Shown: piece after piece, positions 1 through 17,924 of the stretch
Layout of the letters: each line of letters opens with the position of its first letter
Position numbering within the stretch: the first letter of the stretch is position 1
Assembly (NCBI GenBank): GCA_020629595.1
Contig: JAHDDA010000002.1
Span: forward strand, 2,129 to 26,272
DNA from: Chitinophagales bacterium
GTDB lineage: Bacteria; Bacteroidota; Bacteroidia; Chitinophagales; UBA2359
Reading direction: 5' to 3'
DNA length: 24,144 nucleotides
The notes under the pieces: model-generated
What the model saw: only the letters and a program-made list of their open reading frames with translations
Database searches by the model: none
Told to the model about the DNA's origin: nothing
Made by a program: the position numbers and the translations under genes

Positions 1-989
1 CCCATTTGTTGGTAACGTTTAATTTTATTTAAAATTTGATCGGGTGTTCCAACCAAAGCCGCACCACAGCCCGACCTTGCTCTACCAATCCCAGTCCATA
101 AAATATCTTCTGCAAAACCATCGGCATCTGAAATTTCTCTCATTCCTGCCTGTCTTGCTACCCCTAAACTTTTGGCATCTAAGGCTCTATTTCTAATTTC
201 TTCTCCTTTTTCTACTTCTAACTTCGACATTAGCTGTTTTGCATAAGCTCTTGCCTCTTTTTCCGTTTCACGAACAATTACGTGAATACGCAAACCAAAG
301 TCAACTTTTCTATTATATTCAGCAGCCTTATTGCTCATATTCAACATTAACTCTTGTAATTTAGTCTCTGTTTCAGGCCACATTAAATAAACATCACAAT
401 GTTCAGCACATAAATCAACACCTGGAGGAGAATACCCACCAAAATACAATAATGGTCCACCATTTTGCTGGTATGGCTTTACTGGATTTGTAGGCAATTG
501 AATATTATAAAACTGACCACTAAAATCTATAAAATCTTGAGTCCATGATTGTTTCAAAATTTCTATTACTTCTCTAGAACGTTGGTATCTATCGGCTGAA
601 GATAAATCAGTTCCTGGTAAGTTTGAAGAAATAATATTTATGGTTAACCTACCTTTTAAAATATGATCTAAAGTGGCAATTGCTCTTGCTAACATTGGAG
701 GATGCACCTCACCACAACGTATGGCGGCTAATAAATTAATATTTTTAGTTAATGGTGCTACTGCTGAGGCAAAAGTCCAAGTATCTTGCCCGACTTGATA
801 CGATGATGGACATAATATATTTCTAAATCCTAACTCATCAGCTTTCAAAAGTATTTTTGAGGCATTTTGCCAGTTACTTTTATATTGCATAGGCATTTCT
901 CCCAAAAAATCAGTATCTCCATTACAAATTGGTGCAAACCAAGAAATTTCCAATTTATTCAAATTTGCAGAACGTATATTTATAGCCAC
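1..989 (-). CDS. LLM-class (luciferase-like) flavin-dependent monooxygenase, SmoC/SquD sulfoquinovose monooxygenase-like; 3' end runs off the window
   Basis: Not in ORF track. Manual translation of the minus strand gives an open frame from GTG at 989 (in-frame TAG at 993-995; TTG at 962 is an alternative start) to base 1: ...EISWFAPICNGD...GFRNILCPSSYQVGQDTW...LLAAIRCGEVHPPMLARAIATLDHILKGRLTINIISS...PYQQNGGPLLYFGGYS...CDVYLMWPET...DFGLRIHVIVRETE...LWTGIGRARSGCGAALVGTPDQI. LLM family is secure; the SQ-monooxygenase subfamily call rests on recalled similarity. Confidence 0.9.
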   Translation of the reverse strand, partial: MAINIRSANLNKLEISWFAPICNGDTDFLGEMPMQYKSNWQNASKILLKADELGFRNILCPSSYQVGQDTWTFASAVAPLTKNINLLAAIRCGEVHPPMLARAIATLDHILKGRLTINIISSNLPGTDLSSADRYQRSREVIEILKQSWTQDFIDFSGQFYNIQLPTNPVKPYQQNGGPLLYFGGYSPPGVDLCAEHCDVYLMWPETETKLQELMLNMSNKAAEYNRKVDFGLRIHVIVRETEKEARAYAKQLMSKLEVEKGEEIRNRALDAKSLGVARQAGMREISDADGFAEDILWTGIGRARSGCGAALVGTPDQILNKIKRYQQM

Positions 990-1017
990 ACTCTATTGTT
1001 TTGTAATTTCGCAATAT

Positions 1018-1861: not shown

Positions 1862-2410
1862 ATGCCATCAGCTTTTGCCCATAGCCTTGTTGCTTTTACA
1901 TTCTCAAAATTTGTAAAGGCAAAGTATTACTCAATTAGTTTATTATTTTGGGGAATTTTTTGTAGTTCTATTCCAGATGCAGATGTAATAATGTTCAAAT
2001 TTGGCTATGATTATAGTCACTTTTTAGGACATCGTGGCTTTTTTCACTCATTAGCGTTTTGTTGTTGTCTTGCTGCTTTTATTACTTTGGGTTATTTACT
2101 TTTTACAAAAACTAGCATTAAGAGAGGAATAGTCATTTTCATATTCTTGGCACTTTGCTCTTGTTCTCATGGACTTTTAGATACTTTAACAAGTGGTGGT
2201 TTAGGCATTGCTTTATTCTCTCCATTTGATGATACACGCTATTTTGCTCCGTTTCGTCCTATAAAAGTCTCTCCTATTGGTATCGAAAAATTCTTTTCAG
2301 AGTGGGGTTTAAAAGTGTTAATTAGTGAATTTAAGTGGATTGGCGTACCTTGTATAATTCTTATAGTTATTCAATATTTAGCTAATAAAATTTTCAATTT
2401 TTCTAAGTGA
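1862..2410 (+). CDS. Membrane-bound metal-dependent hydrolase, YdjM/DUF457-like
   Basis: Motifs AHS, PDAD, GHRGFFHSL, SHGLLD, GLGIALFSPF typical of the family; hydrophobic helices; starts 1 nt after the channel stop. Confidence 0.85.
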   Translation: MPSAFAHSLVAFTFSKFVKAKYYSISLLFWGIFCSSIPDADVIMFKFGYDYSHFLGHRGFFHSLAFCCCLAAFITLGYLLFTKTSIKRGIVIFIFLALCSCSHGLLDTLTSGGLGIALFSPFDDTRYFAPFRPIKVSPIGIEKFFSEWGLKVLISEFKWIGVPCIILIVIQYLANKIFNFSK

Positions 2411-3042
2411 AAGCAATCTTATTTATAACATTTTTTACTTGTTTTAACCTATCGGGACAAGAAATTTTAGACAGTTTAATTCAGCGTAATTTATTAGAAG
2501 AAAACAGCGTTAAATTTGGAAAAAATAAAGTATTTACTAAAGATTTAGAAACAGAAGCATTTACAGCCATTTCTTTTTTTGAAGAATTAACAAGCACGAA
2601 AATAAAACTAAAAAGAGCCAATATAAACACTAGTTTAAACTGCCGACCAACTTTATTTTCTTTACTTTTTAGAAAGCAAAACAACAGAAAATACATTGTA
2701 AGAGTAGCAAGAAAACCTAAAAATGGAAGCATTACAATTGATGGTGCTAATTTTAATGCGAAAGTTGGTGTTTTAGCTCACGAATTTAGCCATATTATTG
2801 ATTATTCTAATAGAGACTTTTGGGGAATTTTAAAAAGGCTATTAGATTATAGAAGTAGTAAAACTATTGAACTTTACGAAAAAGAAATAGATAAATTGAC
2901 TATTTCTAAAGGATTAGGCTTTCAGCTTTTAGAATGGTCGAAATACGTATTACAAAACCCAAATGCGAGTGAAGAATACAAGAAATTTAAGAAAGAAATA
3001 TATTTAGAACCCAACGAAATAAAAGAAGAAATGATAAATTAA
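2407..3042 (+). CDS. Secreted hypothetical protein with HExxH motif (putative zinc metalloprotease fold)
   Basis: GTG start overlapping upstream TGA (GTGA); signal-peptide-like N-terminus (MKAILFITFFTCFNLSGQ); GVLAHEFSHIIDY followed by a downstream E-xx-x-D (YEKEID). Confidence 0.7.
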   Translation: MKAILFITFFTCFNLSGQEILDSLIQRNLLEENSVKFGKNKVFTKDLETEAFTAISFFEELTSTKIKLKRANINTSLNCRPTLFSLLFRKQNNRKYIVRVARKPKNGSITIDGANFNAKVGVLAHEFSHIIDYSNRDFWGILKRLLDYRSSKTIELYEKEIDKLTISKGLGFQLLEWSKYVLQNPNASEEYKKFKKEIYLEPNEIKEEMIN

Positions 3043-7075: not shown

Positions 7076-8224
7076 CTATTCATATTTCTTAGCTAATCTA
7101 AATGCAATTTCATCTACTTTCTGAATTACATATTTTATCTCATTATCTGTTAAACTCGGATACAATGGTAAAGTAATTGTTGAATCGCCAATGGCTTCTG
7201 CAATAGGAAAGTCATCGTAATCATAGCCGTATTTTTCTGCATAATATTGCATTAAGTGAATGGCTCTATAATTTACTGCACAACCAATTCCAGCTTTTTT
7301 TAGCTCTGTTAAAAATTCATCTCTATAAACTGGCGAAACCCAAATAGTATAAATGTGGCGTGCGTGGCGTGAACCTTTTTTAACATCTGGAATGGCTATT
7401 AAAGGATGGTCATCAAACGCTTCATCATACACTTTACAAATGGCTTCTCTTATTTGTAAGTTACCCAATAAATTATCTATTTGATTTATTAATAACGAAG
7501 CCTGTATATTATTCATATTGAATTTGAAGCCTAAAAACTCCATTTCATAATGTACATAATCGTTTTTATCGTGGCGTTGAAAGGCATTTTTATTAATACC
7601 ATGAATACGGGCTTTTTTTAACCAATTGGCGTATTCCAAATTATTGGTTACAACACAACCACCTTCTCCACAGGTCAAATTTTTGGTAGCATAAAAACTA
7701 AAACAAGCAAAATCACCTAACTCTCCTACTCCATAACCTTCTCTTTTACCTTCAATACAATGGCAAGCATCTTCAATAATTTTTAGCTTATGTTTATCGG
7801 CAATTTCTTTAACTTTTTTCATATCGCACATTTGACCATACAAATGCACAGGAATAATGGCTTTAGTTTTAGGTGTTATTGCTTTTTCAATTTCCGTTTC
7901 TTTAATTATGCCTGTTTCATCGCTTACATCTACAAAAATTGGTTTTGCCCCAACTTGCTCAATAGCGTTTGAAGTAGCCACAAAACTCATTGGACTTGTT
8001 ATTACTTCATCGCCAGCTTTAACACCAATACACTTCAATGCCATAATAAGCGAATTGGTACAGGAATTAGTGCCAATTGCATATTTTACGCCCAAAAATT
8101 TAGCAAATTTTCGTTCAAATTCTTCAACTACTTTTCCAGTAGTAAGAAACAAAGAATCTAAAACTTGAAGACAATTTTCTTTATCTGTTTGTGATAAGGA
8201 ATGTTTATAAAATTCGACTTTCAT
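7076..8224 (-). CDS. DegT/DnrJ/EryC1/StrS PLP-dependent sugar aminotransferase, ArnB-like
   Basis: GDEVIT, FVATSNAI, PIFVDV, KAIIPVHLYG, IIEDACH, FSFYATKNLTCGEGG (PLP lysine), GFKFNM. Confidence 0.93.
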   Translation of the reverse strand: MKVEFYKHSLSQTDKENCLQVLDSLFLTTGKVVEEFERKFAKFLGVKYAIGTNSCTNSLIMALKCIGVKAGDEVITSPMSFVATSNAIEQVGAKPIFVDVSDETGIIKETEIEKAITPKTKAIIPVHLYGQMCDMKKVKEIADKHKLKIIEDACHCIEGKREGYGVGELGDFACFSFYATKNLTCGEGGCVVTNNLEYANWLKKARIHGINKNAFQRHDKNDYVHYEMEFLGFKFNMNNIQASLLINQIDNLLGNLQIREAICKVYDEAFDDHPLIAIPDVKKGSRHARHIYTIWVSPVYRDEFLTELKKAGIGCAVNYRAIHLMQYYAEKYGYDYDDFPIAEAIGDSTITLPLYPSLTDNEIKYVIQKVDEIAFRLAKKYE

Positions 8225-8226
8225 TA

Positions 8227-8934
8227 CTAAAATTGAGGTTGAAAAATAATTTCTTTCGATGCTTTTCCGTATCTAAACAATACATCAAGAATACTTAAAT
8301 AAGGAATAAAATTACTATTATTTTGCTTGTAAATTGGGTGATTGTAGTTATGATAAACCAATTCAATGTTATTTTCTTTAAATGAGGTTTCATTCATATA
8401 AGCTTTTGAAGCTGGACCAGATAAATAATGACTTGCATTTAATGATTTACAAATATTAACTAAGTGTTCAGTAGCATTTGAATAAGGTTCGTATTGCAGA
8501 TTGGAACTCTTTAAAATTTTGGTTTTAATTTCTAAGTAATCGGCAATAGATTGACAAATTTCGACATTTAAAGCTGATAAATTTCCAAACTCACTTTTTA
8601 AGCAATTACTTAACAGCAAAAATACTTCTTCAAAATACTTTTCTTTCCTATAACTTTCTTTAATGAGCCACAAATGCTGTTTTATCCATTTGTTTTGTTG
8701 GTAATTTATACTTATTTCATTTATCAGTTGCTTATAATTTCCTTTAGATTGAATTGGTATAGTCAATAGTTTTTTTTCTCCTTTTAAGTTTAAAAAATAA
8801 TTTCTATTTCTCCAATCTCGGCGAGTGTATTGCACATTATCGAAATAAACAAATGTATCTACATTCATCATCATATTAAAATGCCCCAACCAAGGAATAT
8901 AAGAAGGTTGTAATATGACAACTTTGTTAGCCAT
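8227..8934 (-). CDS. WbqC family protein
   Basis: ILQPSYIPWLGHF, FVYFDNVQY..RDWRNRN, LTIP, YLSGPASKAY, YLSILDVLF. Confidence 0.93.
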   Translation of the reverse strand: MANKVVILQPSYIPWLGHFNMMMNVDTFVYFDNVQYTRRDWRNRNYFLNLKGEKKLLTIPIQSKGNYKQLINEISINYQQNKWIKQHLWLIKESYRKEKYFEEVFLLLSNCLKSEFGNLSALNVEICQSIADYLEIKTKILKSSNLQYEPYSNATEHLVNICKSLNASHYLSGPASKAYMNETSFKENNIELVYHNYNHPIYKQNNSNFIPYLSILDVLFRYGKASKEIIFQPQF

Positions 8935-9802
8935 TTATTATTTCTTCAATTTCGTAAGTGAAAGGTTCTTTCCTATTTTGATAAGAAACACATTTATAAA
9001 ATAAAATGCTTAAAATAAGTAATAAAACTAAAAGAGGAATAAAAAGATAAAGATTATACAAAAGTGCAAAAACGGAAAAAAAACTCAATAAAATCAATGA
9101 AAATTTTAAAAGCTCTTTGAATTTAAAGCCAAAACCAAAGCTTGCAAAAGCAAATAGTTTCAATAACTTTCTAAGATTATATTTACTTTCTCCTATATTT
9201 CTGTTTTCTTGATTCACAAAAATAGTATCATATTCAACTCCAATATTCGCAAATATTCCTGCATAAAATGGAATTATTTTAGGATACTTTTTAAGTTTTT
9301 CTAAAACATCTTTATTAAATAACCTTAGCATAGCTTGATCTTTAGGAATATCTAAACCAGAGGCAAAATTTATCCATTTCCAAAAAAAAGAAGAAGTAGT
9401 TTTCTTAAAAAAAGAGCCTTTTTTTTGTTTTCTAATGGTATAAATAAGTGGCTTTTCGTTTGAAATTTTATCTAATAATAGCTTAATATTTTCAGGTTTA
9501 TCTTGTAAATCACTGTCCATTAAAACACAATAATCTGAGTTTGTATTATCCAAACCTGCCATAATAGCAATATGATGTCCAAAGTTTTTGGTAAACTTAA
9601 TTACCTTAACGCTTTTATCTTTTATGGCTAATTCTTTGGCAATTTTAAAAGTATTATCATTGCTTCCGTCATCTACAAAAATTAAGTAATTACTAAACTT
9701 TTGCAAATCCTTTTCCCAACACTTTTTTATTCTATTATATAAAGCCAAAACGTTTTCAGCTTCATTGTAAAGTGGTGCTATTATGGTTAATGTTGGTTTC
9801 AA
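8927..9802 (-). CDS. GT2 polyprenyl-phosphate glycosyltransferase, ArnC/GtrB/DPM1-like
   Basis: TTG start; PLYNEAEN, FVDDGSNDNT, NFGHHIAIMAGL, MDSDLQD, R..GESKY, C-terminal membrane helices. Confidence 0.9.
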   Translation of the reverse strand: MKPTLTIIAPLYNEAENVLALYNRIKKCWEKDLQKFSNYLIFVDDGSNDNTFKIAKELAIKDKSVKVIKFTKNFGHHIAIMAGLDNTNSDYCVLMDSDLQDKPENIKLLLDKISNEKPLIYTIRKQKKGSFFKKTTSSFFWKWINFASGLDIPKDQAMLRLFNKDVLEKLKKYPKIIPFYAGIFANIGVEYDTIFVNQENRNIGESKYNLRKLLKLFAFASFGFGFKFKELLKFSLILLSFFSVFALLYNLYLFIPLLVLLLILSILFYKCVSYQNRKEPFTYEIEEIING

Positions 9803-9815
9803 GAGAGTATAAAGT

Positions 9816-9956
9816 TTATTTTAATTCGATTAAACACTTTCTTACTTCATCCCAAGTATAAAATTTCACTTTGTTTTCATTAATAGATTTCATTCTATTA
9901 GCCAACAATTCTTTATGTTCAACTGAAATACTTACATTTTGACTATTCTTTTTCAT
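9816..9956 (-). CDS. Small 46-aa ORF, putative addiction-module (antitoxin-like) component, possibly truncated
   Basis: Below ORF-track cutoff. MKKNSQNVSISVEHKELLANRMKSINENKVKFYTWDEVRKCLIELK*; pattern EHKELLxxR...TWDEVR resembles the C-terminal half of TIGR02574/Unstab_antitox proteins; same strand as neighbours. Confidence 0.55.
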   Translation of the reverse strand: MKKNSQNVSISVEHKELLANRMKSINENKVKFYTWDEVRKCLIELK

Positions 9957-9975
9957 TGAATCTATTTTAAGAAAT

Positions 9976-10000
9976 AGACGTAGCAATGCTACGTCTCTAC
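9976..10000 (-). repeat. GTAG-type REP-like palindrome
   Basis: Minus strand GTAG AGACGTAGCA T TGCTACGTCT: GTAG tetranucleotide followed by a perfect 10-bp inverted repeat. Confidence 0.75.
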
Positions 10001-10106
10001 TAAAATAATTTACTTTTTAAAATATCGTAAAGTTTTTTCTTCAAGAGATTGATAAAGTTCGAGTTACAAACTCTCACAAGCAATCTTTTATGAGAATTGT
10101 TACATT

Positions 10107-10889
10107 TTATAAGGCACTCACTAAAAAGTAAGGATTTAGCAAGTTTTCTTTGTTATATTTTAAAGGTTTTTGAGTTTTGGCATTAATAACGGTTGCACCA
10201 GCACACTCAGCAATTACTTGTCCTGCTCCTGTATCCCACTCCATTGTTGGGGCAAAACGTGGATACATATTGGCTTTCCCTTCTGCTACAAAACAAAATT
10301 TTAAAGAACTTCCAGCCGAAACAAACTCTATGTTAGGAAACTTTTCTTTTTGTTGGTCAACGAAGTTTTGTGTATCTTCATTTAAATGCGAACGGCTAGC
10401 CATTACAACGCAAGTATCGCCAGTTGGTGCTTTTGCCGAAATAGTAGATTTTACACCATTTTCAATTTTATAAGCACATTTATCTTCGCCTTTTCTAGCA
10501 AAATAAGTAGTTGATTTTACAGGTAAATCTATAACACCCAAAATTGGTTCGCCATTATGAATTAAAGCTATATTTACCGTAAACTCACCGTTTTGCTTAA
10601 TAAATTCTTTTGTGCCATCTAATGGATCTACTAGCCAAAAATATTCCCAATTTTTACGGTCTTTGTAAGCAATTTCTTTGCTTTCTTCCGATAAAATTGG
10701 AATTTCAGGATAATGTTTTTCTAAACCTGTAACAATCACATCATTTGCCGCTTTATCAGCTTTTGTTAATGGTGATTTGTCTTCCTTAATCTCCACTCCG
10801 AAGTTATCAGAGTTATAAATTTCTAAAATTGCTTCTCCTGCTTTTTGAGCAATTTCAATTAATATTTTCTCGTCAATCTTATTTAACAT
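10107..10889 (-). CDS. cysQ: 3'(2'),5'-bisphosphate nucleotidase
   Basis: KEDKSPLTKAD, ILSEE, WLVDPLDGTKEF, EFTVNIALI, SRSH, GSSLKFC.VAEG, YPRFAPTMEWDTGAGQ. Start moved to ATG 10889, overlapping the rfbD stop. Confidence 0.95.
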   Translation of the reverse strand: MLNKIDEKILIEIAQKAGEAILEIYNSDNFGVEIKEDKSPLTKADKAANDVIVTGLEKHYPEIPILSEESKEIAYKDRKNWEYFWLVDPLDGTKEFIKQNGEFTVNIALIHNGEPILGVIDLPVKSTTYFARKGEDKCAYKIENGVKSTISAKAPTGDTCVVMASRSHLNEDTQNFVDQQKEKFPNIEFVSAGSSLKFCFVAEGKANMYPRFAPTMEWDTGAGQVIAECAGATVINAKTQKPLKYNKENLLNPYFLVSAL

Positions 10890-11752
10890 TGAGTTTCTTT
10901 GTTTAATAACTTTATACAATTTTTGACTGCATCTTTCCAATAAGGGGGCGAATATCCTACATTTTTTACAAATTTATCAATAGAAAGTAGGCTAAATTTT
11001 GGTCTTGGTGCTGGAAGTGGGTATTCTGAAGTAGGAATTGGTGAAACTTCACAATTTAAGCTTGCTTCTTTCATTATATATTTCGCAAAATCATACCAAC
11101 TTGCTGTTCCCGAATTTGAGAAATGAATTAGCTCAATCTCATTTTCTGAAATTCCTTTTTCAATACAAGTTAAAACGGCTTTTGCTAAATCTTTTGCGTG
11201 TGTTGGTGTAGAAATTTGGTCGTTTACAACAGTTAATTTTTCCTTTTCTTTGCCTAAACGCAACATAATTTTCAAAAAATTATGACCAAATTGACTGTAA
11301 ACCCACGAAGTTCTAAAAACTATTCCTTTGGGTTGAATTGCTAATATTTTTTCCTCGCCTAATTGTTTCGATTTTCCATAAACACTTAATGGATTCGTTT
11401 TGTCATTTTCAGTATAAGCACTTTCAGAAGAACCATCAAAAACATAATCAGTTGAAAAATGAATGAGTGCAATATTGTTTTTCTTACAAAGCTTTGCCAA
11501 ATTCTCAACAGCCTTAGTATTAGTTAAATAACATTTTTCTTGTTCTTCTTCAGCCAAATCAACTTTTGTATATGCAGCACAATTTATAATAATATTGGGT
11601 TCATATTCATTTAATTTACTTTCAACCAAGTTAAAATTGGTAATATCACAATCGGTAGAATTAGAAAACTGCCATTCAAATTTACTATTTTTCGCTAGTA
11701 ATTGAAATTCTTTTCCTAATTGTCCGTTTGCTCCTGTTAGCCAAATTTTCAT
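10883..11752 (-). CDS. rfbD: dTDP-4-dehydrorhamnose reductase
   Basis: MKIWLTGANGQLG, NCAAYTKVD, HFSTDYVFDG, YGKSK, RTSWVYS, DQISTPT, APRP. Start moved to ATG 11752 (track start runs into rfbC). Confidence 0.96.
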   Translation of the reverse strand: MKIWLTGANGQLGKEFQLLAKNSKFEWQFSNSTDCDITNFNLVESKLNEYEPNIIINCAAYTKVDLAEEEQEKCYLTNTKAVENLAKLCKKNNIALIHFSTDYVFDGSSESAYTENDKTNPLSVYGKSKQLGEEKILAIQPKGIVFRTSWVYSQFGHNFLKIMLRLGKEKEKLTVVNDQISTPTHAKDLAKAVLTCIEKGISENEIELIHFSNSGTASWYDFAKYIMKEASLNCEVSPIPTSEYPLPAPRPKFSLLSIDKFVKNVGYSPPYWKDAVKNCIKLLNKETQC

Positions 11753-11804
11753 ATACTGAAAATATAAGTAAAACTGGGAAAACCCTGTTCGTTTATTTAG
11801 TATT

Positions 11805-12362
11805 TTAAACTTTAAATGTGCTTTTATCAAACTCTTCCAAAGTCTGAAAATTCAAATCTCTGTCGTTTACAATTTGTTTTTCAGTTGGAATTTGCCAATC
11901 AATTTTCAAGTTTAGATCGTTTATTTTTATGCCGTCTTCGTATTTTTTAGCATAAAAATTATCGCATTTATAATGAAACATTGCCATTTCAGATAGCACC
12001 GAAAAACCGTGTGCAAATCCACGTGGAATCAATAATTGTTTCTTATTTTTAGCCGAAATTATTACTTCAAACTTTTTAAGATAAGTTGCAGAGTTTTTTC
12101 GTAAATCTACTACAACATCTAGCACTTTTCCTTGTAAAACTTCTATTAATTTTGCTTGTGCGTATTCTCCCCTTTGAAAATGTAATCCTCGAATAACTCC
12201 ATATTCAGAAACAGAAATATTATCTTGAACAAATTGATAATTCAGTCCTAATTTCTGAAATGCACTTTCATTATGTATTTCAAAAAAATAACCTCTTTCA
12301 TCTCCAAACACTTTTGGTTCAATTGTATATAAATCTTTAAATCCTGTTTCAACTAAATTCAT
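11805..12362 (-). CDS. rfbC: dTDP-4-dehydrorhamnose 3,5-epimerase
   Basis: PKVFGDERGYFFE, FVQDN.S.S, RGLHFQ, QAKL, DVVVDLRKNS, LLIPRGFAHGF, YKCDNFY. Confidence 0.97.
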   Translation of the reverse strand: MNLVETGFKDLYTIEPKVFGDERGYFFEIHNESAFQKLGLNYQFVQDNISVSEYGVIRGLHFQRGEYAQAKLIEVLQGKVLDVVVDLRKNSATYLKKFEVIISAKNKKQLLIPRGFAHGFSVLSEMAMFHYKCDNFYAKKYEDGIKINDLNLKIDWQIPTEKQIVNDRDLNFQTLEEFDKSTFKV

Positions 12363-13435
12363 AAATTTTCTGAATTTTCGTAACGCAAGGCGTCTTTAAT
12401 AAGTTTGAAAAACAAAATTAATACTGTAGCAATCATTAAAGCACCAATTATAGCAACAGCATAAAAAATAATTGGTATAGGATATAGTTCTTTCAAAGGT
12501 AGTTCTGGATAATCTATTATTTGAATTATTGGTTTTGAGCTTTCTAACTCTAATTTAGCCAACTCAAATGCCTGAACAGATTCTTTGTATAAATTTGAAG
12601 TAATTTCAGCTTCTCTTTCCATTTTTGCTTTGGTCAAATATTCATCGGGTGTAAGTGAAAAAGCACCCATTCGTAAAGTGTATTTATTCAACCATGCTCT
12701 TAAAGTCGCCTCTTTCTCTTTCAGTAAATTATTTAAGGAGTCAACTCTTGAAGCCAACATATCATTGTTTTCTTGTTGTGTTTGCACCGATTTTTGAGAA
12801 TAAAAATCTCTTAAATTTTCAACTAATTTTACGGTAAAACCTTGCGTAAATGCTTCATTATTCGTTACGCATTTTGTTACTACAACGCCATTATCTGAAA
12901 CAGTAACTCTAATTTTATCTTTTTTCAATTCCTTTATTGCTTCCGAAATAAAGTGCATTTCATTTTCTGCAAAAACATCTGTATCAAAAACATCATTAAA
13001 TGCTTTTGCTTCTACTCTACCGCTACTATTTTTAACTAATTTTTGATAATGGTTGATGAATAAATCTTTTTTGCCATTAATAGTATGTTCATTTAGCAAA
13101 GTAGTTTTTAACATTCTGTTTGAAGCCAATAACTCTGCTAAAATTTCGGCATTCATTCCACCGCTACTTGAGCCACCACCCACGTTAAGCCCGAAAGAAT
13201 TTGCCATTCTAAGCAAATTACTTACTTTCCCTCCACTAGATTGGTTGGTCATAAAAGTTAAGCGAGCTTCGTAAGTTGTTGCTTTATTAGCAATGTACCA
13301 GAATGTTAATCCGCAAAAAACTACTATAAAAAAAAGGTAAACATACCATTTTCTAAATAGCTCTTTGAAGTAATCAATAGCAACTACAATTGAATTACTT
13401 GATTTTTTATTGGTATTTTGTTGCGTTTGGTTCAA
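12359..13435 (-). CDS. Wzz-like polysaccharide co-polymerase / chain-length determinant
   Basis: TTG start; N- and C-terminal TM helices flanking a coiled-coil periplasmic region; IQIIDYP before the last TM; no kinase domain; follows the SLBB gene. Confidence 0.8.
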   Translation of the reverse strand: MNQTQQNTNKKSSNSIVVAIDYFKELFRKWYVYLFFIVVFCGLTFWYIANKATTYEARLTFMTNQSSGGKVSNLLRMANSFGLNVGGGSSSGGMNAEILAELLASNRMLKTTLLNEHTINGKKDLFINHYQKLVKNSSGRVEAKAFNDVFDTDVFAENEMHFISEAIKELKKDKIRVTVSDNGVVVTKCVTNNEAFTQGFTVKLVENLRDFYSQKSVQTQQENNDMLASRVDSLNNLLKEKEATLRAWLNKYTLRMGAFSLTPDEYLTKAKMEREAEITSNLYKESVQAFELAKLELESSKPIIQIIDYPELPLKELYPIPIIFYAVAIIGALMIATVLILFFKLIKDALRYENSENL

Positions 13436-13462
13436 AATTTAATGGTGTTGCATATTTCAGAA

Positions 13463-13487
13463 AAACGTAATAATCCTTCGCTTCTAC
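13463..13487 (-). repeat. Degenerate GTAG REP-like copy
   Basis: Minus strand GTAGAAGCGAAGGATTATTACGTTT aligns without gaps to the 9976-10000 element at 18/25 positions. Confidence 0.45.
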
Positions 13488-13493
13488 AAAATT

Positions 13494-16151
13494 TTAATTT
13501 CTAACTTGTTGTACAATTACTAAGATTGATAAAATTGCCGTTACTTTAGAGGTAAAGCTCTCAAAAGCATCGTTCCAATTTCTTCTTTCTCTTTCCTCTA
13601 ATCTTATAGCTTCACGTTTTTTACGATCTGTTAAATCTACAAAAACTGTTGCACCTTCTTCTACCTTTGGATATTTTTTGAAAAAGAAAAACGATTGAGT
13701 TCTTTCAATTTCACCGTTTGGTTGTTCAACATAGGTTTTTAGTCTTTTACCATAATCTCCAAAACCTGCACCATATTTTCTAATATAATGGCGTGCATCT
13801 TTAAGTTTTCCGTCAAAAGGAACTTTAATAACTGTTGCAACCGTATCGTAATCAAAATGTTGCATTTGTCCACGAATGGTAACAATATTTTCAATTTTAG
13901 GGATGTGTAATGAATCTAAATCGCTTAAATAATAATCGTAAGGCGAATTATTTGGATTATTTAAGACTTCTTCTACATCTAATAAAACCTTTGCATAAAA
14001 AACAGGTTCGTGTATTATTTCATCTGTTTTTTTAATCTTAGATTTCTCTTCTTCTCTAAAATTTTCTAAAAACTCTTTTTCTTCTATTGAAAGTTCTTCA
14101 GGTCGTTTGGCTCTATATAAAACAGAAGCATTTTTGTGTGCCGCCGAAGTTAAACCACCTGCACGTTTTATTAAAGAAGAAACTTTTTCGGTTTTACTTG
14201 TTAAAGCATATTCTCCAGGCAAAACAACTTCGCCAGTAAGCATAACTTTTTGTTGTGTTTGAAAATTTGGATTTCTACGAATAAAAACCTTGTCATAAGG
14301 TTTCATTTCAAATTTTGCATCTTGCTCATTTACCTTTAAGTCAAGACCTATTTCTATTTGCTTAATAGTAAAATAGGCATCTTTCTTAGAAGTTTCTCCT
14401 TCAAAAGCCGCTAATCTAGAAACTTCAACAATACTGCCGCCTGCTTCTCTGGAAATTCCACCTGATAAATAAATAAAATCTTGAAGCGTCATTCCTTCTA
14501 CATATTCATATTCTCCTGGCACACGCACTTCTCCTGAAATTTCTACTAATAAATCTTGTCTAAATACTTCTTTTGAAACAAAATAAATTGAATCTTGACG
14601 TTCTAATAATATATTTTCTGGTGAATTTTGATTGATTAAAATTTCAGAAGGTGTAAATGGAATTACATAACGAGAATAATCTTCATCTCTCATTCTGAAA
14701 ACATAGGCACGATTCATATCTGCATTTTCTAAAGGTCCTCTTGCTCTATAAATTAAATCTGACAATCTATCGTTTTCACTGAATTGATATTTCCCTGGCG
14801 CACGAACAGCTCCACCAACTACAACAAAATTATGCACATAATCTGGAATGGAATTTACAAAAATGGTATCGCCATTTAAAAGGTTGAAATCTCTACGAAC
14901 ATTCATTAAACTATCGTAAGGAATATCTAACCAAACTGATTTGTTATCTTCATAACGCTTTACAGAAATTGTTCGAGTGAAGGCTTTTGGATTTAATCCA
15001 CCAGCATATTTAATCAAATCTTTAAGTGTTTCGCCTTCCTTCAATTCGTAATTAAAAGGGCGTTTTACTTCACCAGCTATATGCACAACTTTTCCTACTG
15101 GCGGTACAATTATATAATCATTATCGCCTAAAAAGTTATCTTGTTCTGAGTTTGGATTATTTAGAAACTCATAAACATCTAATATTTGTTCGGTCTTTCC
15201 GTTTCGTTTAATCATTATATTTCTAACCGAACCAATATCGTTTGGACCATCGGTAGCCACCAAAATATCGAAAGCAGAATAAACTGAAGAAACTCGGTAT
15301 GTTCCTGGGTTAAAAACTTCTCCTGCAACATTAACTCGAACTCTACGGTTTCGAGTTAAAGAAATGGCAATATCATTATTTTTTTGCCCGTAAACACTAA
15401 AAATCCTATCCTTTATTAATTCTTTTGCTTCGGAAAAACGCAAACCTTTAACTGTTACTTGCCCAACAAGCGGAATATCTAAATTTCCATTTACATCTAC
15501 TTGGTAAGTTGAATTTAATTGACGATAACCCCATAAAATAACGGTTAACTCATCGCCTGATTTTAGTTGATATTCGGCTGGTGGATTTACGATAAAATCG
15601 TCTTCTGGTTCAATAGAAATAAAGTTTTTTCTAAAGTAATCGTGACCATATAAATTTGCTTGTGGTAAAGCAGTAAATTTCTTAAAAATTGCCTTTTTCT
15701 GATTGGCAATATAGGCTTCTAAAAAGGTAATATTTAATGCTTCAGGGTCGTTTGCATTCTGAATTTTGAACTTCATTAACTGCAAACTATCTTGCATTGC
15801 ATTAATTTGTTGCAAATCTTTTAATAAATCATCTGAAACACCAATTAACTCTAAAATTTCTGGATTGGCGAATAAAACTTCTTCATTTAAATTTACTGTA
15901 TCAATACCAGGAACTAAATTTTGAGATTGTAAATATTTATCGTAATTACTTTCTAAATAAGTTTGGTATTGTTCTTTTGAAATATCGGCATTTTGACTTT
16001 GTGCATAGTTGTTAAACACATCTTGTTCAAAACTCTGACCATTGTTTGTATTCTGATTTAAACCTCCTATTGGATAATTGTAAGTTTGTGCTGAAACGAC
16101 AATATTAAACAATAGAAAATAAAAAGTTATTTGTAGAAATAATGATTTCAT
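13494..16151 (-). CDS. Polysaccharide export protein with Poly_export and multiple SLBB domains (Wza/KpsD-like)
   Basis: YQLKSGDEL, IPLVGQV.V.GL...EA; repeated SLBB starts VAGEVFNPGTY, IAGEVKRPFNY, VGGAVRAPGKY, ISGEVRVPGEY, LTGEVVLPGEY; signal peptide. Start moved to ATG 16151 because the track's TTG lies in the promoter element. Confidence 0.92.
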   Translation of the reverse strand: MKSLFLQITFYFLLFNIVVSAQTYNYPIGGLNQNTNNGQSFEQDVFNNYAQSQNADISKEQYQTYLESNYDKYLQSQNLVPGIDTVNLNEEVLFANPEILELIGVSDDLLKDLQQINAMQDSLQLMKFKIQNANDPEALNITFLEAYIANQKKAIFKKFTALPQANLYGHDYFRKNFISIEPEDDFIVNPPAEYQLKSGDELTVILWGYRQLNSTYQVDVNGNLDIPLVGQVTVKGLRFSEAKELIKDRIFSVYGQKNNDIAISLTRNRRVRVNVAGEVFNPGTYRVSSVYSAFDILVATDGPNDIGSVRNIMIKRNGKTEQILDVYEFLNNPNSEQDNFLGDNDYIIVPPVGKVVHIAGEVKRPFNYELKEGETLKDLIKYAGGLNPKAFTRTISVKRYEDNKSVWLDIPYDSLMNVRRDFNLLNGDTIFVNSIPDYVHNFVVVGGAVRAPGKYQFSENDRLSDLIYRARGPLENADMNRAYVFRMRDEDYSRYVIPFTPSEILINQNSPENILLERQDSIYFVSKEVFRQDLLVEISGEVRVPGEYEYVEGMTLQDFIYLSGGISREAGGSIVEVSRLAAFEGETSKKDAYFTIKQIEIGLDLKVNEQDAKFEMKPYDKVFIRRNPNFQTQQKVMLTGEVVLPGEYALTSKTEKVSSLIKRAGGLTSAAHKNASVLYRAKRPEELSIEEKEFLENFREEEKSKIKKTDEIIHEPVFYAKVLLDVEEVLNNPNNSPYDYYLSDLDSLHIPKIENIVTIRGQMQHFDYDTVATVIKVPFDGKLKDARHYIRKYGAGFGDYGKRLKTYVEQPNGEIERTQSFFFFKKYPKVEEGATVFVDLTDRKKREAIRLEERERRNWNDAFESFTSKVTAILSILVIVQQVRN

Positions 16152-16157
16152 TAGGTG

Positions 16158-16165
16158 CAAAGTTA
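16158..16165 (-). promoter_or_regulatory. Bacteroidetes -7 promoter element TAACTTTG for the export/rhamnose operon
   Basis: Exact TAnnTTTG followed by CA, 6 nt upstream of ATG 16151. Confidence 0.6.
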
Positions 16166-16211: not shown

Positions 16212-17924
16212 TTATTTAGAATTTCTTAAAACTTCAAAAAAATGCTTTAAAACCTTGGCACTATATTCACCATCTGTTTTAATTTCAATAAGTTTTGCTT
16301 TTTCCGAAGGATTATAAAACAAATTCAAAATAGATACCAAATCTTTTTCATTATCGCAAAAATGATAATCAACATCGAAAGCCTCACATATTTTTTCGGC
16401 AGTTTGGGCGTGTTTGTGTTCAAAAAAGTTTTCTAAATGTCCCGATTTTTGAGGACCAGGAATAATTCTAAAAATATTTCCTCCTGAATTATTTATTAAA
16501 ATTATACGCAAATTATTGGGTAAAAATTTATTCCATAAAGCATTAGAATCGTAAAAAAAAGCTAAGTCTCCAGTAACGTGTGTTACAATTTTTGTATTGC
16601 AACTATAAGCAAAACCTGCGGCTGTACTCATTGCACCGTCAATTCCCCCAACGCCTCTATTGGCATAATGCAACACATTTCGTTTGTCAATTTCAAATAA
16701 ATTTGCGTAGCGAACTGGTGTAGAATTTCCCCATTGAAAAATGCTATTTGGTGGTTGATGTTCAATAACTTTTTGTACTACTTTAAAATCACAAAATTTG
16801 CATTGAGTTAAAAAATACTCTTGTTGACGTGCTTTTAAGTCATCTAACTTTTTAAAATTTGAATAATATTTGTATGACTGCCAATTGTCTTCTTCAAAAT
16901 CGTCATCATTTTCATCTTTCAGATTTAGCAAAAAGTTCAAATCATTAGTGTTTAACAAATGCGTTAATTGCTTAAAAGTATCTTGGTGTTTATAATCATT
17001 GCGAATACTCCAATGAAATTCTGGTTTATAATTTCGCAGATAAACTTTTATCTTCTTTGAAACTATCATTCCACCAATTGTAACCACTAAATTGGGCTGA
17101 AATTTTTGTTTCTCCTCTTCTGTTATTGTATCAATAAATCTATCTATTGCTGGTAAATATGTACTGTACGAAAGATTTGAGCAACTTTCGGTCATTACCA
17201 AAACTTTCTTTTGTTTTGATAGTTCACTCAAAACATTATTCAACGATTTGTCTGCATTTAAACCTACAATGATTAATATTTTATTAGCATTTCTCCAGAT
17301 TTCAGATAATTCTATTAGCTGATTTTTAGAAAGTGTTTTTTGTGGCTCAAAGGCTTGTATATTTTTAGGTTCTGGTAAATCATTTTTTTCAACTAAATCG
17401 TACAGAGGCTCTGTAAATGGAACGTTAATATGAACTGGACCTTTGGCTGGAAGCTGAGTAATATTAATTGCTTCAACTACCGTACGTTCAGCAAACCAAA
17501 GTTTATCTTTTGCCGAAGTATCTTGTGGATATTGAAAGCTCTTTTTTATATAATTTGCAAAAATATTATGTTGTCGAATGCTTTGCATATCGGCTTGATC
17601 AATCCATTCACTTGGTCTATCGGCTGTTAAAACTAGCAAAGGCAATTCTTGATAATAGGCTTCGGCAATGGCTGGTGCGTAATTTAAAGCTGCTGTGCCA
17701 GATGTACAAACAATAGCCACTGTTTGGCGAGTGTGTTGTGCAATACCTAAAGCAAAAAAGGCTGCTGAACGTTCATCTACAATACAAATACACTCAATCT
17801 CTTTTATGGCATTGAAAGCAATAACTAAAGGTGCATTTCTTGAACCAGGAGAAAAAACTACTTTTTTGATTCCTTTAACGGCACAAAGTTTGGCAAGTTG
17901 AATGATTTCTTGTTTACTTGTCAT
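16212..17924 (-). CDS. menD: 2-succinyl-5-enolpyruvyl-6-hydroxy-3-cyclohexene-1-carboxylate synthase
   Basis: SPGSRNAPL, DERSAAFFALG, CTSGTA, LTADRP, NSTPVRY, NRGVGGIDG, GDLAFFYDSNAL, NNSGGNIF. Confidence 0.96.
   Translation of the reverse strand: MTSKQEIIQLAKLCAVKGIKKVVFSPGSRNAPLVIAFNAIKEIECICIVDERSAAFFALGIAQHTRQTVAIVCTSGTAALNYAPAIAEAYYQELPLLVLTADRPSEWIDQADMQSIRQHNIFANYIKKSFQYPQDTSAKDKLWFAERTVVEAINITQLPAKGPVHINVPFTEPLYDLVEKNDLPEPKNIQAFEPQKTLSKNQLIELSEIWRNANKILIIVGLNADKSLNNVLSELSKQKKVLVMTESCSNLSYSTYLPAIDRFIDTITEEEKQKFQPNLVVTIGGMIVSKKIKVYLRNYKPEFHWSIRNDYKHQDTFKQLTHLLNTNDLNFLLNLKDENDDDFEEDNWQSYKYYSNFKKLDDLKARQQEYFLTQCKFCDFKVVQKVIEHQPPNSIFQWGNSTPVRYANLFEIDKRNVLHYANRGVGGIDGAMSTAAGFAYSCNTKIVTHVTGDLAFFYDSNALWNKFLPNNLRIILINNSGGNIFRIIPGPQKSGHLENFFEHKHAQTAEKICEAFDVDYHFCDNEKDLVSILNLFYNPSEKAKLIEIKTDGEYSAKVLKHFFEVLRNSK

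Follow-up and report, generated by a model that had tools for sequence, protein, structure and literature searches.

The window analysed here, a stretch of 24,144 nucleotides (G000:C221:2129-26272), comes from a Saprospiraceae-like metagenome-assembled genome (MAG) that is 61% complete; the host is a member of the Bacteroidota, as the first-pass annotation of this DNA had stated, and its nearest named relatives are Saprospiraceae. The window opens within a gene for a predicted FMNH2-dependent luciferase-like monooxygenase (LLM) of the SmoC/SquD clade, a candidate sulfoquinovose (SQ) monooxygenase, which occupies positions 1..989 on the minus strand and supplies codons 1-329 of 373. The assignment draws on the open reading frame (ORF), a match to PF00296, matches in the PDB, a phylogenetic tree and eight of eight signature columns. 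The frame begins with a GTG at base 989 and stays open for 329 codons as far as base 3, where it leaves the window on the left; the full gene of 373 codons lies at C221:1996-3117. The first-pass annotation had reported a minus-strand open frame of at least 329 codons with six blocks nearly verbatim to SmoC. Such a frame is present at 3-989; its translation contains RNILCPSSYQVGQDT, AAIRCGE, LARAIATLDHILKGRLT, PYQQNGGPLLYFGGYS, CDVYLMWPET and WTGIGRARSGCGAALVG, and all six are identical or near-identical to SmoC of Agrobacterium tumefaciens (AtSmoC, Atu3279; PDB entry 7OLF) in the alignment. That this is a genuine gene rather than a chance ORF is shown by the Pfam domain Bac_luciferase (PF00296), which matches residues 15-328 with 177.8 bits against a cut-off of 27.9, and by homologues numbering in the thousands, the closest being 77-88% identical.

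The residues compared are 1-329 and the last ten, residues 330-363 (C221:2029-2128) lying outside the comparison. The C-terminal end (C221:1996-2028) reads ...YFIVFKENIN and stops about ten residues short of the conserved tail of the relatives, ...TPLAAGKRQ. In an intact gene, C221:2029-2128 would be an in-frame stretch like ...GIRSFIFSGYPH..., with the equivalents of Tyr341 and His343 included; a rearrangement may have broken the sequence close to the 3′ end of the gene. Nonsynonymous divergence (dN) from the relatives is 0.14-0.18, and dN is given without a dN/dS ratio because synonymous sites are saturated.

In a phmmer search of the PDB, the two top matches of the monooxygenase were AtSmoC (7OLF; 419.5 bits, E = 8.5e-125) and RoSmoC (7OH2; 417.5 bits, E = 3.5e-124), with MsuD at 181 bits (2.6e-52), SsuD at 151 bits (about 5e-43) and SfnG at 81 bits (1e-21). 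The entries 7OLF and 7OH2 are the SQ monooxygenases SmoC of A. tumefaciens and Rhizobium oryzae; SmoC is active on SQ, inactive on SQ-glycerol and HEPES, and about 30% identical to SsuD (PMC8795539). The window monooxygenase falls below the NCBIfam SsuD equivalog TIGR03565 (218.4 bits against a cut-off of 518.2), below NF001939 (203 against 510) and below the SfnG model TIGR04021 (136 against 383); the query was without its last 44 residues, which cannot explain a shortfall of 300 bits from the SsuD cut-off. An exhaustive search of 1.84 billion representatives returned full-length relatives at 45-61% identity scoring 268-427 bits, and the next full-length group reached at most 37% identity and 181 bits, a gap that shows the SmoC/SquD-like proteins as a discrete family. 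Identity is 57-59% to the Ruegeria and Rhizobium references, about 50% to the SquD type and 31.6% to E. coli SsuD. Eight signature columns were defined by conservation in 12 non-Bacteroidota members of the clade and rarity among SsuD-like proteins. The window monooxygenase matches all eight, compared with 0-1 of 8 in SsuD-like rows; under a wider definition it matches 20/20 of the columns readable in its compared residues. The residues proposed to recognize SQ are Trp206, Arg236, His238, Tyr341 and His343 (PMC8795539). Equivalents of the first three are present in the window monooxygenase, and among its Bacteroidota relatives the equivalent of Tyr341 is found in 27/27 and that of His343 in 26/27. 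We know of no SQ-bound structure of SmoC.

A careful maximum-likelihood tree, rooted on SsuD, comprised the window monooxygenase, its Bacteroidota relatives, representatives and named references (Ruegeria TM1040, Rhizobium SL42, Novosphingobium, Sphingomonas and E. coli SsuD) whose gene clusters were inspected directly. AtSmoC was outside this tree, so the link of the window monooxygenase to it comes from the PDB search; a representative tried as its stand-in (P0123) was rejected, being no closer to AtSmoC than the window monooxygenase is (about 1.25 bits per aligned residue in both cases). A long, fully supported branch parts the SmoC/SquD group from the SsuD group. Within the SmoC/SquD superclade (support 100/99*), the sphingomonad SquD clade (100/99*) branches first, and the Bacteroidota clade that holds the window monooxygenase (98/97*) is sister to the SMO-cluster enzymes of Ruegeria TM1040 and Rhizobium SL42 (97/90*), with the Novosphingobium and Sphingomonas squ-cluster enzymes outside that group. 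The Bacteroidota clade is thus bracketed by enzymes from canonical SQ clusters. The Ruegeria and Rhizobium cluster runs Gfo/Idh/MocA (GH188-type)-GntR-LLM-aldo-keto reductase (AKR)-flavin reductase-TRAP, with a PF03601 putative sulfate exporter further on, and the squ clusters comprise a TonB receptor, a GH31 or Gfo/Idh/MocA enzyme, LacI, AKR and LLM. Together, the PDB ranking and the tree support the earlier proposal that the monooxygenase would group with SmoC/SquD rather than SsuD or SfnG. Inside the Bacteroidota clade, pairings of Flavobacteriaceae (Maribacter, Allomuricauda) with Saprospiraceae have starred support (L040 with L041; L063 with L098), an intermixing that points to lateral spread of the module from one order to another, or to mis-binned MAG contigs.

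Relatives of the monooxygenase occur in at least 560 species-level genomes; the gene is rare across the phylum (4 of 400 sampled genomes) and common in the family of the window's host (9/24). On three long contigs of relatives, an AKR gene, the LLM gene and an SSF symporter gene follow one another in this order. In a census of 80 named Bacteroidota loci, mostly from Saprospiraceae MAGs and marine Flavobacteriaceae, the LLM has a downstream neighbour in 73, and in 51 of these the next gene is the SSF symporter, in the same orientation. The AKR lies directly upstream of the LLM in 27/73, and both partners lie no more than four genes from it in 26/80. In all 80 loci the surroundings of the LLM are free of PF01613 reductases, of GH188 and GH31 sulfoquinovosidases (SQases) and of menB. 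Six Flavobacteriaceae loci, among them those of the cultured Croceitalea marina KCTC 52368 and Spongiimicrobium salis A6F-11, add a LacI regulator, a divergent PF03358 (SsuE-type) FMN reductase and a PF03601 putative sulfate exporter; an SsuE-type reductase is said to partner SquD (PMC12890257).

Several other genes were seen near the LLM. A family of proteins of up to about 955 residues (median about 500) lies no more than four genes away in 8 of the 80 loci (L074:572-3439, L045, L052, L066, L080, L094, L103 and L104), and its 955-residue representative (L074:572-3439) is a fusion of sulfatase, metallophosphoesterase and 5′-nucleotidase C-terminal domains. In two genomes of the same family, a gene for a GH113-like glycoside hydrolase is convergent with the AKR-LLM pair (G024 L010:2-1474; G017 L011:2656-3879) and could encode a glycosidase tied to that module. 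A protein of about 340 residues with a weak alpha/beta-hydrolase match, found near the LLM in four loci (L033:5959-6996, L040, L055 and L098), might hydrolyse sulfolipid derivatives as an esterase. In a cultured strain of Emticicia oligotrophica (Cytophagales), genes for an LLM, a sodium/solute symporter and a GH95 enzyme follow one another in this order on the 34-kb plasmid pEMTOL05 (L029:6489-12417), and the occurrence of the LLM-symporter pair on this plasmid indicates that the pair is mobile and extends beyond Saprospiraceae and Flavobacteriaceae.

In the host genome the picture is different from that of the relatives and from that first envisaged, in which a reductase, a GH31 SQase and perhaps SusCD uptake genes would flank the window on its left. 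The 2.1 kb on that side hold instead menB, a convergent RNA 2′-O-methyltransferase gene and the start of TamL. The menB gene (478.7 bits against a cut-off of 378) adjoins the 3′ end of the monooxygenase gene, whose stop codon TAA overlaps the menB start ATG (TAATG), and the two are translationally coupled. The predicted reductase partner does exist as an AKR orthologue, found by tblastn at 47-52% identity; it lies on another contig, C348, and not beside the monooxygenase. The SSF symporter has an orthologue on C328 at 64-69% identity. Each is the reciprocal best match of the corresponding LLM-adjacent gene from five relatives; their contexts are unrelated, and the three pathway genes are on three contigs. 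The AKR belongs to the YdhF/SmoB subfamily, with PDB matches to YdhF-like reductases and SmoB (E = 1.7e-52 to SmoB 7BBY, compared with 7.6e-64 for a cluster AKR from a relative). For the symporter the best matches are vSGLT and SGLT1 (about 1e-47), with the sialate transporter behind at 5e-18, which places it in the SGLT sugar subfamily. Candidate flavin reductases are unlinked in this genome, with PF01613 proteins on C78 and C190 and a PF03358 protein on C104. For sulfite handling, neither a PF03601 protein nor a molybdenum sulfite oxidase was found in this genome; two TauE-family genes are present, the TauE family being generic.

The other anticipated partners fared less well. Of the two GH31-family matches of the genome, considered as SQases, one is an ordinary alpha-glucosidase and the other resembles alpha-galactosidases, and the genome's single Gfo/Idh/MocA protein, considered as a GH188 candidate, matches 8QC2 at 3.5e-9 and an unrelated enzyme at 2e-46, and so is not GH188-like. 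In place of SusCD, the conserved partner in relatives is an SGLT-type sodium symporter; the ORFs of 1051, 562 and 492 codons before the symporter on C328, considered as uptake genes, encode a TPR protein, an unknown protein and an HU-like protein. In a phylogenetic profile over 40 relatives the genes of the trio occur together, with both LLM and SSF symporter in 8 genomes, the LLM only in 2, the symporter only in 2 and neither in 28. Three of the four mismatches involve a gene at the end of a contig, the fourth a genome of 75% completeness, and since the profiled genomes are related and not independent, these counts are not a formal test.

Three things were observed directly, namely the clade membership of the enzyme, the conserved linkage in relatives and the presence of partner orthologues in this genome. 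On these grounds we consider that the window gene, an orthologue of SmoC and SquD, probably encodes the SQ monooxygenase of a 'scavenger' form of the SQ monooxygenase (sulfo-SMO) pathway that lacks an SQase, and we infer from them the substrate, the products, the role of the symporter and the source of reduced flavin. Free SQ that other organisms release would enter the cell through the SGLT-type Na+ symporter, and the two-component FMNH2/O2-dependent monooxygenase would oxidise C6 of free SQ to give sulfite and 6-oxo-glucose. A non-dedicated or SsuE-type flavin reductase would supply the FMNH2, and the SmoB/YdhF-type AKR would reduce 6-oxo-glucose to glucose. A sulfoquinovosidase would be no part of this module. 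It is from the lack of an SQase that a reliance on SQ freed by others would follow, which fits the origin of the DNA: the sequencing runs that carry it are labelled 'algae metagenome'. These runs are probably the source sample and so give no independent support; no RNA run is listed among them.

The proposed module differs in composition from the systems already described. AtSmoC and R. oryzae SmoC of the sulfo-SMO pathway share with the window monooxygenase the LLM fold family, the clade and long sequence blocks, and the pairing of SmoC with a SmoB-type AKR in A. tumefaciens C58 recurs in the Bacteroidota relatives. Unlike the Agrobacterium pathway, the module is found in another phylum, and in the 80 loci no SmoA-type (PF01613) reductase is linked and neither the ABC importer SmoEFGH nor the GH31 SQase SmoI lies beside the LLM; the importer would be an SGLT-type Na+ symporter. 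The Roseobacter/Rhizobium-type sulfo-SMO cluster, with the GH188 enzyme SqgA and TRAP, has been described for R. denitrificans OCh 114 (PMC12780224, PMC10755693). Bacteroidota loci have in common with its Ruegeria and Rhizobium versions the LLM-AKR adjacency and a nearby PF03601 'sulfate exporter'. The order is AKR-LLM-SSF in Bacteroidota and LLM-AKR-flavin reductase in Ruegeria and Rhizobium; SSF replaces TRAP, and GH188 and GntR are absent from the Bacteroidota loci. The LacI regulator and SsuE-type reductase of the Flavobacteriaceae loci also set them apart from Ruegeria and Rhizobium, and the Saprospiraceae loci have neither linked. These two genes, and the order AKR then LLM, liken the Flavobacteriaceae layout to the Novosphingobium squ cluster (PMC12890257), the sulfo-ASMO cluster that encodes SquD and SquF (Liu et al. 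2021, as cited in PMC12890257). SquD-type enzymes, however, are without the C-terminal extension and branch outside the group of SmoC and the Bacteroidota enzymes, and squ clusters include a TonB receptor, a GH31 or Gfo/Idh/MocA SQase and glycerol catabolism genes, none of them linked here. E. coli SsuD (1M41, 1NQK) resembles the window monooxygenase in fold, in its two-component chemistry and in the catalytic residues equivalent to Arg236, His238, Tyr341 and His343; it differs in belonging to a separate clade and in matching 0/8 signature columns, and the monooxygenase is without an ssuEABC context.

A number of observations weigh against an SQ monooxygenase of such a scavenger pathway. Because E. 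coli SsuD carries the whole published set of five SQ-recognition residues, the set does not discriminate, and the positions of Tyr341 and His343 fall within residues 330-363, outside the compared sequence. The last ten residues of the monooxygenase fail to align with the tails of the relatives, and the integrity of the C-terminus is judged from 329 codons plus these ten residues. No GH31 or GH188 SQase was found in the genome, which at 61% completeness does not prove absence. No pathway partner adjoins the gene here, the coupled gene being menB of menaquinone synthesis, and no dedicated flavin reductase is linked to the LLM in the Saprospiraceae loci. A member of the clade from Spirosoma, 55% identical, has genes for an amidohydrolase, an amino-acid permease and SoxC as its neighbours, not sugar genes. 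Finally, no paper reporting an assayed Bacteroidota member of the clade was found in the searchable literature.

The Spirosoma case bears on the rival that survives best, a desulfonating monooxygenase of the SmoC clade whose Bacteroidota members would act on another sulfonate, such as another 6-sulfo-hexose or an algal sulfonated metabolite, with the aldehyde product reduced by the linked AKR. The plasmid locus of Spirosoma oryzicola (NZ_CP089541.1, L115:1405-12378) encodes SusC, SusD, the amidohydrolase, the LLM, the amino-acid permease, a cytochrome c and the sulfite dehydrogenase SoxC, without AKR or SSF, and is a desulfonation locus whose substrate may differ. With no sugar genes beside this member, belonging to the clade is not enough to fix the substrate, and substrate shifts inside the SmoC/SquD clade are possible. 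The same rival gains from the fact that the substrate assignment of the Bacteroidota members is based on sequence, from the linkage of an SQase in 0/80 loci, from published SQ-binding residues that are common to the promiscuous SsuD, and from sulfatase fusions and GH78, GH95 and GH113 genes that recur nearby. We nevertheless hold it unlikely. Enzymes from SQ clusters stand on both sides of the Bacteroidota clade in the tree, with the SMO-cluster sister at 97/90* and the SquD types outside; the clade keeps His343 like the SMO references, whereas the Spirosoma/Emticicia subclade has Leu in its place. The conversion of SQ via 6-oxo-glucose to glucose calls for a reductase and an importer like the SmoB-type AKR and the SGLT-type hexose symporter, and a LacI-family sugar regulator is present in the Flavobacteriaceae clusters, as in sphingomonad squ clusters. 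A smaller chance attaches to the bolder form of this idea, in which the whole AKR-LLM-SGLT trio of Bacteroidota would be no SQ module at all: it would desulfonate some other algal sulfonated sugar or metabolite by a route of its own, its monooxygenase having evolved a new specificity inside the SmoC clade and its symporter being the first of the SGLT subfamily to carry a sulfonate.

We give less credence still to the possibility that the window gene is an orphan left by the break-up of the trio in this genome, decaying or no longer serving SQ catabolism, for instance co-opted with menB. The spread of the partners over three contigs, a C-terminal tail about ten residues shorter than and unlike those of relatives, the overlap of the stop codon with the menB start and the lack of a copy in a genome of the same genus (G001, 69% complete) all lean that way. 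Against decay stand 329 codons without a stop or frameshift, up to 82% identical to relatives, at the dN given above with synonymous sites saturated; full-length AKR and SSF orthologues are kept, and a shorter C-terminus is natural in the SquD-type enzymes, which are functional. As to co-option, menB is near the LLM in none of the other loci among the 80, and we know of no link between LLM enzymes and menaquinone synthesis. The least credible reading is an ordinary SsuD/MsuD-type alkanesulfonate monooxygenase for sulfur scavenging, which has in its favour that several source databases give close relatives the name 'alkanesulfonate monooxygenase' and that the top NCBIfam match by score is the SsuD model, but is contradicted by the phylogeny with its long separating branch, by 218 bits against a cut-off of 518, by 31.6% identity to an SsuD that shares 0/8 signature columns, and by the finding that no ssuABC or ssuE gene adjoins the LLM in any of the 80 loci.

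In the searchable literature, sulfo-SMO has been reported in Alpha- and Betaproteobacteria, in Roseobacter, in Novosphingobium and lately in Actinomycetota and Spirochaetota; for Bacteroidota the same literature offers only 'sulfoglycolytic gene homologs' and the GH188 SQase of Flavobacterium sp. K172, and part of the supplementary tables of a 2026 ISME J survey makes no mention of the phylum. The version in Saprospiraceae and marine Flavobacteriaceae would thus be a variant of a known pathway in groups so far uncredited with it. Both groups are typical bacteria of algal blooms and algal surfaces. If the enzymes act on SQ, Bacteroidota would be an overlooked sink for free SQ released by others, and surveys that require an in-cluster SQase or SmoA-type reductase, or 60% identity to Roseobacter SmoC, would miss or under-count them; a 60% cut-off would exclude the window monooxygenase because of its 57-59% identity to the Roseobacter/Rhizobium-type references. 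The SGLT-type symporter would then be a new kind of SQ importer. The two cultured carriers make the SQ reading directly testable.

The remainder of the window was covered by a Pfam scan of its ORFs, in which no sulfosugar gene was found. On the upstream side of the monooxygenase gene, a divergent intergenic spacer of 28 nt (990..1017, from the ORF coordinates), with no regulator adjoining, separates it from an ion-transport-family channel gene on the plus strand (1018-1860; Pfam Ion_trans). The claim that the monooxygenase gene is first in its transcript is supported in part, by the divergent orientation of this upstream gene, and with only 28 nt between the divergent starts both promoters must lie in neighbouring coding sequence. 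Synteny of menB in relatives was considered as a test of an insertion of the monooxygenase gene beside menB; the neighbours are not conserved and nothing was concluded. An ORF of 211 codons on the plus strand (2407-3042) has no Pfam or NCBIfam match. The rest of the window carries a thioredoxin-reductase-like gene, Lnt, an O-antigen and dTDP-rhamnose block, a Wza-like exporter, a MenD-like enzyme and ParAB. The surface-polysaccharide block (7076-16160, minus strand) comprises a DegT-type aminotransferase, WbqC, GT2, an inositol-monophosphatase-family protein, RmlD, RmlC, an ORF of 358 codons (12359-13435, minus strand; no match in Pfam, the only collection it was scanned against) and an 888-residue Wza/SLBB exporter. 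The MenD-like protein, a 570-residue thiamine diphosphate enzyme with TPP_enzyme_N and middle domains, is encoded at 16212-17924 on the minus strand, about 15 kb from menB, so that the menaquinone genes are dispersed.

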